Part shown: piece after piece, positions 4,134 to 25,037 of the stretch | How positions within the stretch are numbered: position 1 is the stretch's first letter | How the letters are laid out: each line of letters starts with the position of its first letter | UHGV virus genome: UHGV-0151410 | Reading direction: 5' to 3' (one strand) | DNA: 31,092 nucleotides | DNA from: a virus | Translations under genes and position numbers: made by a program | The notes under the pieces: model-generated | Seen by the model: only the letters and a program-made list of their open reading frames with translations | Told to the model about the DNA's origin: nothing | Database searches by the model: none

Positions 4134-7100
4134 TTACACCTGTGCGACGTTATACCATGTGCCATTGATGTATTTTTGTATTGGCCTGAAGATGGCTTCA
4201 TCATCGCCATCTACTTCACCAATGATTCTTAATCCGGTAATTGCGTGTCCGGCTTTTTCATAACGACCACCACGCGCCATCAATTGAACAACTCGCGTAC
4301 CCAGGCGAACATCTTTTACATAGCGTGAATCAAAATTCCCCCAGTTGTTGGGCTGTATCTGACCGTTAACAGAAAATATTACCGAGTTATCTGTATTTCG
4401 CTGGCTATAGAAATGCCATCCTGCCTCATCGCCTAACTCTGCAACTACTGGACGGGTTGAAGCACCCCATAAATTAAACGTTGCATTCTTTGTGGAGGTG
4501 TTGGAGCTGGATAGCGAGAACTTTTTACTATCACCAGCCTGAATGTTTTTAAAAGCAATAGCAACTCCATTCTGAAAGCGGAATACTCGCTGACTATTAG
4601 CGTAAACATCCAGAATACCATCACCATTCTGTTTGAATCCGGTGTCATTATCACCAAGAACAATAGAGCTACCACCTAACGCATTCGTCGTACCAACTCC
4701 AAGACTGCCATTAATGACGGCATTTACCAGAATATTTAGTGCATCCCATTTCAGCGTCATCAGGTCTTTTGTTGTGGTGCTCTGGCGGCTTCTCCATTTG
4801 AAATATTCATTGCCGTTGTCGCCTGTTTCAAACCACATGTATGAATCAGTGTCACCATCGGCATCATTTTTAAATCCAATCTTTGCCCAGTCAGTATTTC
4901 GAATCCAGGCAAGGATTGAGTCGTTTTCAAAAGTAAGTCCTCCGGACAAGATATCGCCTGAACGCTGAACGGCATTATTTGCTTTATTAATAAATTCCTG
5001 TAGATTTAAATCTTCCGCCGTTAGCTCAATATTTTTAGAACCATCAAACGACACCCCATTTATAGTTCTAGCAGTTTGCAACTTGGTCGCTGTCGCTGCA
5101 TTACCGGTTGTGTTCTGGTTACCAGCAATGTTTACACCCGGCAGGTTGATATTGGCGGAGCCATCGAATGACACGCCGCCTATTGTGCGTGCTGTTTGCA
5201 GTTTTGTTGCAGTTGCAGCATTACCGTTCAAACTACCATTGATGCCGCCAGTAACATTGAGTCCATTACCGATCGTAACAGCACCATTGGCATTGTTAAT
5301 GATAAGCGGCCTTAACCTATTATAGGTTCCCAGGCTGTTACCCGAATCGGTCAACATGAAGTATGTGCTTGAACCATCGTTTCGGATAAAGAATCCATAG
5401 TTGCCATAGGCAATGCGCAGACCATTCGCCGATTTGGAAATAATCTCGCCAGCGAATTTCGCATAGGAACCAGTCCTCAAGACTAACTCTTCCTGAGCGT
5501 CAGTTGTTCCTGTACATAAGCGATAAACATTATTCTCTATTGTTTCATGCCATATGCTTGCACCTGTGCTGGAGCGGAAACGTCGCAGATACATTTTTGC
5601 ATCGTCAACAACTGACGTGAGCATGTCATGTTTATACTCACTTTGCGGCACGCCATTGCTATTGATTCCTCCCCGAAGAACAGTGCCACCCGGCATGGTA
5701 AAAATGCCATCTTCACCGAATATCCAATCACCTGAATTAGTACCATTGCCGGTTTCTTTATTCGGCGCAGCACAATTTATCCGGATGCCTGGTCGTCTGT
5801 TAGGGTTATCGACACCATCTTTAAATATGTACCCATCAGTTAGTGTTGTGCCGTCATTTTTCGTATATGTAAAGCGGATATGACGGCTTGTATGGCTACT
5901 AAAAATAAGATCGCTTTTAGTGGTAAGTAATGGAGCTGTCAGACCTCCTAATAATGTGCCTCCGGATAGAGACAGCGCGCCAATGTTCTCTGGTGTCAAC
6001 GAAATATCAGTAGTGCCATCGAAGGTTACTCCGTTGATTGTTCTGGCGGTCTGTAATTTAGTTGCTGTTGCAGCATTACCATTGAGGTTTCCAGAGCTAT
6101 AGAAACCACGACCATTGCTAAAATCAATAATTATGTCGGCAGCTATACATTCAGCTTTAGGGTTGGTAGCCCCCCATTTGTATGTGGTTTGTCCAACAAT
6201 ATAATCCGTTGTAGGGACAACAACAGAAAGCCCCTCCTCCACAAGAACGCATACTGGAAATGCTCCGCCTTCAATATAAAAAACTGAGCTAACTTCATCG
6301 TCTTTATTGCTCATCGCAATAGAATGAATCGCCCGTTCTGCATCCTGATATTGCCAGAACATCCCGTATGCGTACCGCCCTCTGTCACTCCAACCAGCAG
6401 GCATCACAAAACCATTGAATTCGCAGTTGTTCATGCGATGTGCAGCTTGGCGCGGCGCAGTGGAAATAATAACCCGAGAAGCAAGTTCACCATTGCTCGT
6501 TGCAGATCTCTTGATGACTACAGGATAGAATTTACCCTCTTCAGCTCCCGAAGGAGCATTGACTCTGGTGAATTTCATCCCTTTTTTAAGGTCTACTTCG
6601 GCTTTGCTGTAAACATCAATATTTTTTCTTGTTAACGCTGCATCAGTTGGTTCTAATGCTCGGCATTTGCTATCTCCGGTAATCAGAAAGTTACCGTCAA
6701 TGTCTAATCCGGCATATTTATTGGTGTTGGTATCAGATTGTAGATGTAACGTCAGCCATGAGCGGTTGCCACTCCTTATCTCTGAATAAATTCTGAAACG
6801 ACTCCTCTGTACCCCAGCTGAATTATTCAGATAACCACTTACAATCCCTGACGCGGCTAAATCAGCGTCTGTTGAGTTAACAAGATTGATACCCTTAAAT
6901 TGGGGGACGTCCGCAACACCTAATCCAAGATTAGTACGCCCTCCAGAGACGCTGGATGCACCTAATCCCCCATGAGTAATTGGTAAAATACCTTTTATGC
7001 CCAGAAGAGCATTTGATGAACCATCAAAGTCGATGGCGTTATCACTTTGGAGGTCAACTTGAAGCGACCTTTTGGTTTTCAATTTCGTCGCGGTGTCGGC

Positions 7101-21188: not shown

Positions 21189-22847
21189 TCAGCGCATCAG
21201 AATTGGCTTACCGACGATTCGGCGAGCTGTGCCGGTCGGACAAACAGACCAGGACACTTCCCACAGATCGATGTCCTTTTGGACAACCTGAACAACATAT
21301 GGATCTTCACCCTGGGACTTGTCTCGTGGAGTAACCAGCGCACCGGCTGCAACGTAACGGTCAAGCAATTCAGTCATTGCTTTCATTAGCGTTTCTTTGG
21401 TAATGCCATCCGGTTCGTGCTTAATCGCCTGAGCTACTTCATAGAAATCTCTGGCGATGGCGTTCATCAAGGAAGACACATGCTGGAATCGCAGATAGTT
21501 GTTTTTGCTGTAAGTTGTTAAAGAGTCGTCAATGTAAACGGACCCGTCAGCAGCAACTGAAACTGGATTAATGCGCGCAAGAACGAACGCTTCACGATCA
21601 ACTGCACCGATATTTGGAATTCGGGCAATGTTCTGTCGATCAATAATCGCGCGTGATATACCTGCCGGTGCGTAATGCCAACCACCAACATCCGGTACCA
21701 GCGCCACTCCTTTTGCCTTCGCTACGAATGCGTCGCAGCTAATGCCATAGACGACATTCATTCCAGTGAAAGTATCTCGGCAGGAGAGCGGGAAGTAGTA
21801 ACGGCTTGGTTGATGTGAGCCGCCAAAACTATGGCTTTTCGCTTCTGAAATAGCGTTTTCAGGTGTCTGGTTGCCCTTCAGGTCATAGAACATGTCTACG
21901 CGAACATCTTCAGCCAGCTTTTTGATTGCGGCTAAGGCGGATGCGTCATAACAACCCAATGACAGCAATGCGGTGTAATTAACCTCTGAAGCTTCGAGAA
22001 CCTTTAATGCTTCCAGATAGTCTGCAGCGTTAATTTCGGACAGATTTCCATCAGTACCACCTTCAAAAGCTACATCCTCAAAAATGAGTTGAGCAGCGGA
22101 TGCTTCTGCATTATCTGCCAGTACGGCACCAATGCGAGTGGACTGGCTTTCAAGCAGTGTCGGAATCCATGCTGGTTGGCCCATGTCGTTGGTGCCTTCT
22201 GGATTGAAAGACACTTGGTGGCTTTCCAGCACCTCAATGGACCCATCGGTTTGTTTTTCTTTCAGCGTCAGCGTAAAGAGTTCGCTTTCTTCATCATCGC
22301 GAGTTAGTGATAACGTGCGATTTTGAGATGCATCACCATCTTTGATGAAGAATAATGCCTTCTCTTCACCTTTAATCTGGGGCGTCTCTTTGGGTGTGAA
22401 GGTCACTGATTGAGTCGTTGCAGTTGAAGCAACACCAACGCTTAATGTGACACCTGGATTTACTGTGGTTTCAGTTGGTTCAACGGAAAGTTCTTTACTC
22501 GCCTTTGCCGCTTTTGCTCTGCCCACAACGGAAACAGAAATACCCGGCACCTTCATGTCTTTAGCGCAAACTCGAACGACATATCCAGAGCCGCCTTTTA
22601 CTGCACGCTCCACGTGGCGATATGGTTCAAATGCCGCGCCCTGGCGAGGGTGAATCGGTGAACCTAATACGCTTTGATAAGTCGTATCGTCAACTTTCAG
22701 TACCTTACCCGGTGCGCCACGACGCGATATTACAAGCCCAGCAAAGACGGATGCGCCACCGCTGGTATTGGTGAGGGTAGCGTCAGCATTTACTGACATT
22801 ACAGCAACGCCAGCTGCCTGCCCTACCGAAAAACTAATCTTATTCAT
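21189..22847 (-). CDS. Contractile tail sheath protein
   Basis: 552 aa; C-terminal region (W.YAPAGISRAII...INPVSVAADGSVYIDDSLTTYSK.NYLRFQHVSSLMNAIARDF) parallels the conserved C-terminal domain of T4 gp18-type sheaths (WMSPAGYNRGQILNV...INPVTGTGGDGYVLYGDKTA...RINVRRLFNMLK). Confidence 0.8.
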   Translation of the reverse strand: MNKISFSVGQAAGVAVMSVNADATLTNTSGGASVFAGLVISRRGAPGKVLKVDDTTYQSVLGSPIHPRQGAAFEPYRHVERAVKGGSGYVVRVCAKDMKVPGISVSVVGRAKAAKASKELSVEPTETTVNPGVTLSVGVASTATTQSVTFTPKETPQIKGEEKALFFIKDGDASQNRTLSLTRDDEESELFTLTLKEKQTDGSIEVLESHQVSFNPEGTNDMGQPAWIPTLLESQSTRIGAVLADNAEASAAQLIFEDVAFEGGTDGNLSEINAADYLEALKVLEASEVNYTALLSLGCYDASALAAIKKLAEDVRVDMFYDLKGNQTPENAISEAKSHSFGGSHQPSRYYFPLSCRDTFTGMNVVYGISCDAFVAKAKGVALVPDVGGWHYAPAGISRAIIDRQNIARIPNIGAVDREAFVLARINPVSVAADGSVYIDDSLTTYSKNNYLRFQHVSSLMNAIARDFYEVAQAIKHEPDGITKETLMKAMTELLDRYVAAGALVTPRDKSQGEDPYVVQVVQKDIDLWEVSWSVCPTGTARRIVGKPILMR

Positions 22848-22914
22848 GCTGGTTCTTATCCTCTAAAGCGAGAGAACGAGGCAAGGCTACCCACGGTTAA
22901 TGGGCAGCCTCTGA

Positions 22915-23193
22915 TCAGGATTCGCTTACCGTGAAGTTATCGCCTACGGTTACTTCTTTCGTAGTTGGTTCAACACTGACGGTGCTTACGCTTTTATGTG
23001 CCTCCCTAACAGTGACTGTGCACTGTGCGGTTTTATTGCCGTCATTTGTTTTGATTGTCAGCACTGCCTGCCCGGCCTTAAGAGCGGTACATGTAGTGCC
23101 ATCAACCTGGACAATTTCAGGGTGATCTGACTCAACAGTGAAAGATTTGTCTGTTGCGTCAGATGGCGTGATAGTTACTTGAATGTTTGCCAT
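22915..23193 (-). CDS. Bacterial Ig-like (Big_2-type) domain protein, candidate capsid or tail decoration
   Basis: 92 aa with a beta-rich Ig-like pattern (ATDKSFTVESDHPEIVQVDGTTCTALKAGQAVLTIKTNDGNKTAQCTVTV); AGGAG SD upstream; lies in the -1 frame relative to the capsid gene. Confidence 0.65.
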   Translation of the reverse strand: MANIQVTITPSDATDKSFTVESDHPEIVQVDGTTCTALKAGQAVLTIKTNDGNKTAQCTVTVREAHKSVSTVSVEPTTKEVTVGDNFTVSES

Positions 23194-23205
23194 TTTTTCT
23201 CCTGA

Positions 23206-23226
23206 ACGCCCCTTAATCAGGGGCGT
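23206..23226. other. Stem-loop ACGCCCC-TTAATCA-GGGGCGT between the capsid stop and the Ig-like ORF start
   Basis: 7-bp G/C stem; T-runs on both sides on the + strand. Confidence 0.45.
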
Positions 23227-23339
23227 GTTTTTGCCTTACTTCTGCTTTGTTTTTTTCTGTGCCTTTGAAGTGTTCACGGCGATAGTTTCACCTTCATCTA
23301 CGTCAAGTGACGTTGGTGATACCGACACGTTCGCCACCA

Positions 23340-25037
23340 TCACTTTTTTTCGTTAACCTTGCCTGTCAGCATGTCGATAGCACCTTCTTTGGCGCGAGTC
23401 AGACGCAGGCGGGTGAAGTAGTTTTCACCGTTGCGAGGATGTACTTCGTTGATGGCACTGCCCCAGAGAGTGGTACGGTTAACGAGAGACGGATTGGTTT
23501 CGTGCACGTAAGGGATTGCTGGGACTGCATCACCAGCAATCAGACCGGCTTTACCGATGCCTTCGCCACGCCCATAGAAGAAGATGTCATCCAGCCCGAA
23601 GTCATATCCCTGTGCCTGGAATTGCTCACAGACAGGTTGCGGCACTTCGTAAATACGAATCGTGCCAAACAGGGTGCCGATGTACTGTACATACGGCGAC
23701 TGAACGTAACCTGGTGCGATCTGGAAGTGCTGTGGAGGCAGAGAGCGCAGGAAGTTCGCGGCGTCACTACCAGCAAAGCCGCCACGAATACCCGTTGTCA
23801 GGGTACGATTTGCCATTTCTTGAGACAGAGCGTTTACTACGTGACGCAGGAGGCCGACCCAGGACTCATAGTTTTGAGCTTCCGGCAGAGCCACATCAAA
23901 TTCACGACCATAAACGGTATGGAATACCAGGGTGCGCAGACGCATGATGTCGGTTTCATGGGAGATCCAGTTACGCATCGCGGAGAACTGAAGTGCCGCT
24001 AATTCAAGGCCGTGCTCACGGCTTAAATCGGATGCGGACATTACCGTGTGTTCGGAAGCAAGTACGTACTGGGACGGACGAACTTCGTACTTACGCATAG
24101 CCTGGTTGATCACCGGAATCAGGCTTGGATTGCGCTCGATGTTAATTTCGACCTGAACAGCAATTTCAGTACCTTCTGGCGGAGCCTGGGTAAATGTAAT
24201 GTCAATGACACCAGTGTCATAGGCAACTTTGGCAGTCGCTGAGAAAGCATTACCTTTGCTGTCTTTAGCATTGAAATAAAGGTTGCCATCGCCGTCGTCA
24301 ACTTTGGACGGTTTGCGGTTGATCAGCAGTTTGTTATAACCAGCGCGAAGCGGGCAGGATTGTCCCTCAAAATTTTGGATGTTGAACTGGAAGGTTTTGG
24401 TGCTGCCATCCCCTTTAGTGGAAAGGGCATACAGGCGCTTCATTTGAGAATAAACACCAGCTGACTGCATATTCAGTTCGTCACCTTGGTTGAAGGTGCC
24501 GAATTTTGTGCCTGCTACGTTGACCAGTTCATAAATATTTGACTCGTCACGATCACAAGGAACAAAAGTACAGGCATCACTGGTAGCAGCGCCCAGAGAG
24601 GCAGGTAGAATTAGAGCAGCATATTGAGCAACTTTCATTACGCCGTCAGAGCTACGCATTGATTGCGCGACAGACTCAAACATTGCCTTACCCGTGCCTT
24701 CATGGGTATCACTGGCACATTCAGTCATCAGGCGCTCAAGAGCCATGTGTGCGTTCGCCAGGATGTCACTTGCCGGGTAATGACCATGTTGACGTTTATA
24801 CTCATGCAGAGACATAGCCCACCCACCAGTGATCTGACGAGCGACCTCTGGATTTACGCCTTCAAACATAGGCACTTTCTGGATTGCTTTATCCAGGTTT
24901 TCCATCATTACTGCCTGGTCAGCAATCATGTTGCCTGCTGCATCGGTGGTCGGATCGACGGTCATAGCCATGACGCTTGCCGCCCGATTCATAATCTCGC
25001 GCTCGCGATCACGAGCTGGCTGAATGTTTTTATTCAC
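23340..25037 (-). CDS. Probable major capsid protein precursor (HK97-like, with N-terminal delta/scaffold-like region), P1 gp23-like by size
   Basis: 565 aa; helical charged N-terminus (DREREIMNRAASVMAM...); followed by a hairpin and an Ig-like ORF; first gene of the minus-strand capsid-sheath-tube series. Assignment by context and size, not by a diagnostic motif. Confidence 0.55.
   Translation of the reverse strand: MNKNIQPARDREREIMNRAASVMAMTVDPTTDAAGNMIADQAVMMENLDKAIQKVPMFEGVNPEVARQITGGWAMSLHEYKRQHGHYPASDILANAHMALERLMTECASDTHEGTGKAMFESVAQSMRSSDGVMKVAQYAALILPASLGAATSDACTFVPCDRDESNIYELVNVAGTKFGTFNQGDELNMQSAGVYSQMKRLYALSTKGDGSTKTFQFNIQNFEGQSCPLRAGYNKLLINRKPSKVDDGDGNLYFNAKDSKGNAFSATAKVAYDTGVIDITFTQAPPEGTEIAVQVEINIERNPSLIPVINQAMRKYEVRPSQYVLASEHTVMSASDLSREHGLELAALQFSAMRNWISHETDIMRLRTLVFHTVYGREFDVALPEAQNYESWVGLLRHVVNALSQEMANRTLTTGIRGGFAGSDAANFLRSLPPQHFQIAPGYVQSPYVQYIGTLFGTIRIYEVPQPVCEQFQAQGYDFGLDDIFFYGRGEGIGKAGLIAGDAVPAIPYVHETNPSLVNRTTLWGSAINEVHPRNGENYFTRLRLTRAKEGAIDMLTGKVNEKK
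23343..23349 (-). other. Candidate -1 programmed frameshift heptamer A_AAA_AAG overlapping the capsid stop codon
   Basis: Minus-strand ...GAA AAA AAG TGA. The -1 frame is open for 35 codons (VMVANVSVSPTSLDVDEGETIAVNTSKAQKKTKQK), then one TAA, then continues in the same frame into the Ig-like ORF. Confidence 0.4.

Follow-up and report, generated by a model that had tools for sequence, protein, structure and literature searches.

C-terminal extensions of phage coat proteins that are produced by ribosomal frameshifting are established for gene 10 of T7 and T3, for Lactobacillus phage A2 and for Listeria phages, and the extensions of T3 and A2 are immunoglobulin-like (Ig-like) domains (PMC5009743). 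Within groups of related phages, the sequence for such an Ig-like domain may be joined in frame in some members and lie out of frame in others (work of Fraser et al., summarised in PMC5009743). Here we describe the 3' end of the major capsid protein gene in the virus genome UHGV-0151410, a DNA stretch of 31,092 nucleotides (the window) that represents a D6-like, P1-related plasmid prophage of Escherichia coli. This gene ends in the slippery heptamer A_AAA_AAG, and comparison with related loci makes it highly probable that recoding of some kind takes place at the capsid end and probable that the mechanism is ribosomal -1 frameshifting. As judged from sequence, the D6-type site is a new case of the known frameshift-made capsid Ig extensions, unannotated in the D6 and RefSeq records. 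On the same grounds it differs from the described cases in that only part of an Ig domain is added to the capsid protein, the remainder is encoded as a separate conserved protein that ends in another such fragment, and the frameshift appears to have persisted while a whole clade diversified.

The likeness to T3 10A/10B and T7 gene 10 lies in a minor capsid species that arises when ribosomes slip by -1 shortly before the coat gene ends (PMC5009743). T7, however, has a G_GUU_UUC-type shift site, unlike the A_AAA_AAG found here, and T3 appends an entire Ig-like domain, whereas the present extension is a fragment with a basic tail whose complement lies on a separate protein. A frameshift-extended major head protein, with both forms in the capsid, is likewise known from Lactobacillus phage A2 (gp5A/5B) and the Listeria phages A118, A500 and PSA (PMC5009743). 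These phages differ in their hosts and shift sites (+1 in PSA), in the greater length of their extensions and in having no complementary truncated Ig gene behind the head gene. With dnaX and the IS911/IS3 family the locus shares the identical heptamer and the single shifty tRNA-Lys of E. coli, and a putative stimulatory stem-loop lies at the canonical spacing; in contrast to these systems it has no conserved Shine-Dalgarno (SD)-like element, and in D6-like lineages the 0-frame stop lies directly 3' of the heptamer.

All relevant genes are located on the minus strand. Over 2.3 kb surrounding the site, the window shares 99.3% identity with Escherichia phage D6, and the 351 nt that span it (23150..23500) match plasmid ptetA from E. 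coli strain 19-5 at every position (100% identity). The D6-like family is present in 83 of 5,426 complete E. coli genomes and occurs also in Salmonella, Shigella and Enterobacter. The capsid gene (25037..23340, minus strand) encodes a P1 gp23 homologue of 565 aa. Its product shares 98.9% of residues with the major capsid protein of D6 and 44% with P1 gp23, and a comparison with the experimental structure of P1 Gp23 (9ukm) gives E=4e-164. Its 3' end reads GGC AAG GTT AAC GAA AAA AAG TGA, the TGA at 23342..23340 being the 0-frame stop. The heptamer (23349..23343, minus strand; codons GA[A AAA AAG]) thus stands in the X_XXY_YYZ phase and spans the last two capsid codons and the final base of the codon before them. 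The initial annotation, which had been made from the letters alone, had let the heptamer overlap the stop; presence and phase are borne out, and the motif is adjacent to the TGA, which it abuts without overlap. The window contains about as many AAAAAAG strings as chance predicts (13 observed versus 10.8 expected), and among the 13 copies the one in the capsid gene is the sole in-phase copy within a long open reading frame (ORF). In E. coli, A_AAA_AAG ranks among the most shift-prone heptamers and is strongly under-represented in phase within genes (z=-10); reporters gave frameshifting of 0.29% with the heptamer alone, 4.3% with the IS911 stimulators and 39% with the IS3 pseudoknot (PMC4066793 supplement).

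In the -1 frame, the sequence remains open for 35 codons (23343..23239, minus strand; VMVANVSVSPTSLDVDEGETIAVNTSKAQKKTKQK) and closes with a TAA at 23238..23236, the extension and its stop together occupying 23343..23236. The first part, VANVSVSPTSLDVDEGETIAVNTS (23337..23266, minus strand), aligns with the N-terminus of a complete Big_2 domain that is fused in frame to Serratia-type capsids and comprises strands A and A' and the start of strand B; it is followed by the Lys-rich tail KAQKKTKQK (23265..23239, minus strand). The extension thus consists of about 24 Ig residues and a basic tail and is not a complete Ig-like domain. By itself it has no Pfam match, and it corresponds to approximately positions 2-24 of the 79-position Big_2 profile. 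Further downstream lies an Ig-like (Big_2) ORF of 92 aa with its own start (23193..22915, minus strand). When residues 1-20 of the -1 peptide are placed in front of this ORF, the artificial splice widens the Pfam Big_2 coverage from 22-79 to 2-79 and lifts the score from 34.5 to 43.5 bits. Because the splice extends the match in this way, the -1 peptide can be taken as a genuine Big_2 N-terminus, which bears out the earlier impression of a 35-aa frame resembling the first strand of an Ig domain. Basic tails of differing sequence occur also in the related loci L238, L242, L245 and L031 and are missing in L030, L244 and L240.

The relatives used for comparison were drawn from plasmids, phages, viral contigs and metagenomes and from a protein-profile search, and several lineages are represented by single metagenomic contigs. 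A scan of metagenomes yielded no new intermediate lineages, and a scan of genome contigs with a single protein query returned one near-identical locus only. Among 76 loci scanned for the heptamer, some of which are the same contig from two collections, it is in phase in all 67 D6-like and all 4 L030-like loci. Every D6-like locus (67/67) reads AAC GAA AAA AAG followed by TGA, TAA or TAG, with the codons further 5' diverged. Beyond the D6-like group, six further loci from five lineages have an in-phase A_AAA_AAG within unrelated capsid C-terminal tails. The tails end in DEEEKKSE (L030/L092), DDGKKSE (L244), DTGKKSE (L238), GEAKKSE (L242), ETEKKSK (L245) and GDEKK (L240), each followed by the stop. 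In these lineages the codon before the heptamer is GAA, GGA or GCA, and the heptamer adjoins the stop or lies two codons 5' of it. In each of these further lineages the -1 frame encodes a homologous Big_2 A-B fragment with the pattern V-x-V-T-G-[VIL]-S-V...G-[DE]-x-[FI], and the extension is 24-45 residues long and ends 5' of a hairpin each time. In total, the fragment lies in the -1 frame in at least 7 lineages.

Capsid identity among the heptamer lineages is 62-90% (62-82% for the five lineages beyond the D6-like and L030-like loci), and synonymous sites have therefore turned over many times. What is kept at minimum is exactly six A and a G, in phase, and relatives that have the fragment in frame, or have no such fragment, lack the in-phase heptamer. 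In line with what the initial annotation expected of a working site, the alignment finds the heptamer kept across diverged lineages together with a homologous -1 peptide, and of its two proposals, that of a working frameshift which yields a short extension receives strong support from the comparison of genomes.

Several observations weigh against frameshifting at this site. Without a stimulator, the heptamer by itself gives merely about 0.3% shifting (PMC4066793). The AAGG to which the initial annotation pointed is indeed present in the window, where it ends 7 nt 5' of the heptamer; its role as an SD-like stimulator was rejected since the motif is not conserved, the relatives having GGGCAG or GGGCAA in TAG-type lineages and no counterpart in L030-type ones. 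A second candidate is a stem-loop (23337..23276, minus strand) that begins 5 nt 3' of the heptamer, with an outer stem formed by 23337..23331 and 23282..23276 and an inner stem formed by 23323..23315 and 23292..23284. Minimum free energy (MFE) folding returns this stem-loop for the window (z=-2.3) and for L003 (z=-3.5), and it is also the RNAalifold consensus of 9 D6-like variants. Its pairing is found in 94% of cells versus 25-58% in slid-partner controls, and substitutions cluster in the spacer and the apical loop. However, compensatory double changes are absent among the D6-like variants, in which all pairs are invariant or changed on one side; the shuffle control was not exceeded, the observed values being reached in 284 of 500 shuffles; the stem arms sit in conserved codons, so that protein constraint could account for their invariance; and the MFE fold of L002 is a different one (z=+0.5). 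As a frameshift stimulator, the downstream stem-loop is suggestive only. In other lineages, non-homologous hairpins start approximately 7-24 nt downstream of the heptamer. The -1 peptide, moreover, evolves fast, with 8-12 nonsynonymous versus 4-7 synonymous codon changes between sublineages. Finally, in the D6 record the -1 ORF appears under the name orf50 as a hypothetical gene of its own with 34 aa, and an ATG overlaps the capsid stop (TGATG) in the TGA and TAA lineages, the window included.

The last two points suggest that the 35-codon ORF could be an independent small gene, translated by termination-reinitiation at TGATG and never joined to the capsid protein. The TAG-type D6-like lineages, however, lack the ATG that the window carries, and in L030/L092, L244 and L245 neither ATG nor GTG nor TTG occurs in the -1 ORF or in its few open upstream codons. 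An SD site ahead of the ORF is missing, the homologous peptide is part of the capsid protein in L031, L032, L239, L246 and the Serratia-type phages, and a free half beta-hairpin of 24-35 aa would have no obvious fold. Taken together, this makes an independent gene very unlikely. In RefSeq plasmids the -1 ORF is unannotated, and ribosomal slippage is annotated at the capsid end in none of the D6 and RefSeq plasmid records examined. Since the conservation, the missing starts and the in-frame relatives are otherwise very hard to explain, the -1 ORF is best read as a translated stretch that lengthens the capsid protein at its C-terminus.

What is known of A_AAA_AAG in E. coli argues for ribosomal slippage as the recoding mechanism, but slippage could also occur during transcription. 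RNA polymerase slipping on the A-run would add one A to some capsid mRNAs and thereby give rise to the same 600-aa protein. Polymerase slippage is independent of phase and is favoured by longer runs (8-9 or more). The site in the window is a 7-A run, the protein product would be identical and A-runs are known to cause transcriptional slippage (PMC5009743; PMC4066793 for AAAAAAA). Selection for such slippage should, however, have lengthened the run, which is only 6 A in L238, L242 and L244, 7 A elsewhere and longer than 7 in no lineage. Because the run is held at 6-7 A and its phase is strictly conserved, ribosomal slippage is preferred and the polymerase appears an improbable agent.

If ribosomal frameshifting operates as proposed, most ribosomes on the capsid mRNA would terminate at the TGA and release the 565-aa capsid protein. 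Some would slip by -1 on A_AAA_AAG through tandem re-pairing of two tRNA-Lys and read 35 more codons, giving a 600-aa capsid variant with the junction GKVNEKK followed directly by VMVANVSVSPTSLD. The tail of this variant would comprise two or three beta-strands from the beginning of a Big_2 domain and a Lys-rich stretch, ending at the conserved TAA, and the 92-aa Ig-like protein would be translated separately from its own SD site and ATG. The P1 head contains 775 capsid subunits (T=13; PMC12810830). Should the tail serve as a docking point for the Ig protein, the frameshift rate would set how many of about 775 subunits can carry a decoration; over the plausible range of efficiencies a D6 head of about the size of P1 would hold from approximately 2 to approximately 300 extended subunits per particle.

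The evolutionary order of the states can be approached through those relatives that have no in-phase heptamer. L031, L032, L239 and L246 carry the homologous fragment in frame with the capsid protein (ending in GQVNGTSGTVVEGVTLSPASITVSAGDEITAGNTKKDS and a stop). Serratia-type relatives have a complete Big_2 domain joined in frame to the capsid protein at this junction and lack a separate Ig gene, and the P1, JK004, Pantoea and Leclercia types have neither an Ig fusion nor a separate Ig gene. In a simple neighbour-joining tree of the capsid protein, computed without bootstrap, the in-frame clade is nested among the frameshifting lineages, and L240 and L242 are basal. Because of this nesting, the frameshift is likely the ancestral state of the clade, and it seems to have persisted while the clade diversified, with one reversion to the in-frame state. 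The same comparison bears on the idea that the site is a non-functional relic of a broken capsid-Ig fusion, in which the -1 ORF decays, the heptamer is incidental and any shifting is noise. Such decay could be read from an extension that is short, fast-evolving, variable in length (24-45 aa) and only part of a domain, all the more as relatives with a complete in-frame Big_2 exist. In a relic, however, neither a heptamer in phase, which is avoided elsewhere, nor an open -1 motif would persist down to 62% capsid identity, nor would the fragment be retained in frame in a nested clade, and we regard this explanation as extremely unlikely. The coexistence of in-frame (Serratia-type, L031-type) and out-of-frame (D6-type) members in one family resembles phage Ig-domain additions in general; the difference lies in the conserved domain fragment and in a frameshift that has been long maintained here rather than being a sporadic accident. 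Two more distant relatives, L061 and L062 (55% identity), have capsid proteins with Lys/Asp-rich, low-complexity ends encoded with A-runs (GACAAAAAAAAC, GAAAAAAAACGAAACAAAAAAACC), and no Ig gene lies downstream.

The region between the extension and the 92-aa ORF contains a GC-rich hairpin, ACGCCCC-TGATTAA-GGGGCGT (23226..23206, minus strand; -16 kcal/mol, z=-3.2), and an SD site, AGGAG (23203..23199, minus strand), which precedes the ATG of the Ig ORF by 5 nt and is kept as GGAG in relatives. A hairpin of this type (GCCCC...GGGGC) is found 3' of the capsid gene in every P1/D6-like lineage, P1 included (e.g. L006-L010, L030, L031, L238-L246), and one base pair is changed from CG to AT in L003. 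The hairpin was considered as an intrinsic terminator of the sense strand and rejected in this role, as its T-run is on the plus strand, antisense to the capsid gene, and is deleted in TAG-type D6-like lineages; it may act in RNA stability, attenuation or antisense termination. A second hairpin (22911..22883, minus strand; -27.7 kcal/mol, z=-3.25) separates the Ig ORF from the tail sheath gene. The Ig gene is thus bracketed by two hairpins, like an inserted cassette.

In the window, the frame of the extension runs on past the lone TAA and through the hairpin into the 92-aa ORF without any further stop. From this continuity came the alternative of a single fusion gene for capsid, extension and Ig domain that was split, recently on this view, by one stop codon; such a gene might still be expressed by frameshifting and stop-codon readthrough. 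The shared frame and the single TAA are real features of the window, but they are not conserved as a unit: the spacer from the extension stop to the Ig ATG measures 37, 38, 39, 42 or 43 nt in close relatives. Because of this variation the alignment indicates that the shared frame is an accident of an A-run polymorphism (GAAAAAATG versus GAAAAGAATG). Nor does the TAA (23236..23238) turn into a sense codon elsewhere, as would be expected of a recent interruption. It ends the extension in all D6-like lineages, down to about 75% nucleotide identity, with the exception of L019, and by this comparison the stop is ancestral. In addition, the intervening hairpin and the SD site separate the two frames, the Ig ORF has its own ATG, and it duplicates strand B rather than continuing the extension. 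A split fusion is therefore hardly tenable. In L019 (approximately 4187-4300), a 1-nt deletion in the A-run of the Lys-rich tail alters the end of the -1 ORF (ending in KAQKKQSRSKAKTRP and a stop); the deletion may be natural or may have arisen in assembly.

The 92-aa protein is itself an incomplete Ig domain. Its match to Pfam Big_2 (PF02368) scores 32.9 bits (cut-off 22.8; 34.5 bits in the splicing comparison) and covers only profile positions 22-79, and full coverage is reached only in artificial splices of the ORF with either of the two A-B fragments. The strand layout, which was read from the alignment to the complete Serratia Big_2 and from the Pfam splices, assigns residues 1-68 to Big_2 strands B-G, beginning with MANIQVTITPSDATDK, and residues 69-92 (VSTVSVEPTTKEVTVGDNFTVSES) to a second A-A'-B fragment. 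This two-part layout recurs in all thirteen Ig orthologue lineages examined (approximately 92 aa; 37-97% identity). The C-terminal A-B fragment is conserved like the core, with column identities of 0.55-0.67 versus 0.67. Pfam coverage of the capsid tail and of the 92-aa protein is complementary, and capsid A-B tail and truncated Ig gene strictly co-occur across lineages. An AlphaFold2 model of the 92-aa protein reached a mean predicted local distance difference test (pLDDT) score of 89, an earlier run with a shallow alignment 62.6, and the best structural match is PDB 7QUZ, a Big_2-CBM56 oligomer. Two viral-contig matches to the Ig ORF, L117 and L118, were set aside as unrelated tandem Big_2 proteins. 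L240 (2238-2444) and L241 (758-964) contain an extra 68-aa Ig ORF (MSDVKVSVSPKDATNQ to VTVKAKAEE and a stop) that consists of the core only, without the C-terminal A-B fragment, which is found in all other Ig ORFs of the clade; it sits between the capsid -1 extension and a 91-aa Ig ORF.

A tentative possibility is that the capsid tail is exposed on the capsid surface and serves as a docking point for the 92-aa Ig protein, because exactly the strands found in the tail are absent from the core of this protein and recur at its C-terminus. The complementary Pfam coverage, the strict co-occurrence of tail and truncated Ig gene and the conservation of the C-terminal fragment also speak for docking. 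Two observations speak against it. Concerted evolution of the capsid and Ig C-terminal A-B fragments was not significant in permutation tests (p=0.12 and 0.19), and strand B is present in both pieces, with which a simple complementation by one strand fits poorly. It is conceivable, though doubtful, that the split Ig domain assembles by beta-strand donation. In such an assembly, the frameshift-made tail (A/A'/B) would complete the truncated Big_2 core of one Ig subunit, whose own C-terminal A-B fragment would complete the next subunit, so that non-covalent Ig chains would form on the head; the frameshift rate would set the number of anchor points, and the L240-type 68-aa core-only protein, which has no donor fragment, would act as a chain cap. 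Chaperone-usher and type V pili are assembled by donor-strand complementation of Ig-like subunits with an incomplete fold. The likeness concerns the possible way of working only, namely an incomplete fold, an extension that matches the missing strands and a head-to-tail linkage. The pili are not homologous to the D6-type proteins, in which strands are missing at the N-terminus, whereas the putative donor lies at the C-terminus, and strand B occurs in donor and acceptor.

Small Ig-fold proteins encoded near the capsid gene are also known from T4 (Hoc), T5 (pb10) and N4 (gp17) and are, as far as described in these sources, presumably displayed on the head (PMC10385173, PMC5292684, PMC11768535). 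They have a dedicated capsid-binding domain, whereas the 92-aa protein consists only of the C-terminal A-B fragment and a Big_2 core that lacks A/A'. In P1, the capsid is not decorated by any such protein (PMC9024508).

Downstream of the Ig gene and the second hairpin lies the tail sheath gene (22847..21189, minus strand), which is a homologue of P1 gene 22 according to the D6 annotation and is mentioned here for context only. The sheath protein encoded at 21189-22847 has 552 aa, as compared to approximately 529 aa for P1 gene 22, and contains a stretch with an Ig-strand-like pattern (beginning with KELSVEPTETTVNPGVTLSVGV) that has no Pfam match. Two database entries deserve a comment. The capsid-Ig-sheath copy of the Salmonella plasmid pSa1423-160k (L005, NZ_MK356558.1) contains many small, chiefly homopolymeric indels, which look like uncorrected long-read errors, and its capsid gene is unannotated. 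A D6-like contig with 97% identity to the capsid region of the window (L011, CALWLV010000256.1) was deposited under a metagenome-assembled genome of 'uncultured Roseburia sp.', an assignment that is probably a binning error.

To our knowledge, no arrangement has been described in which a Big_2 domain is split between a capsid tail and a separate protein of 92 aa. Existing annotations of the site give either a spurious 34-aa gene (D6) or nothing (RefSeq). The clade constitutes a natural experiment, as it comprises frameshifted, in-frame-fragment, in-frame-whole-domain and Ig-free states, from which it can be asked why a frameshift is kept in preference to a fusion. If the two pieces assemble, they would represent a new way of attaching an Ig-like decoration to a phage head, with relevance to the adherence of phages to mucus and other surfaces, and could offer a compact display scaffold on P1-type vectors. 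If strand donation holds true, the donor-strand principle of pili would also serve the decoration of a phage capsid.

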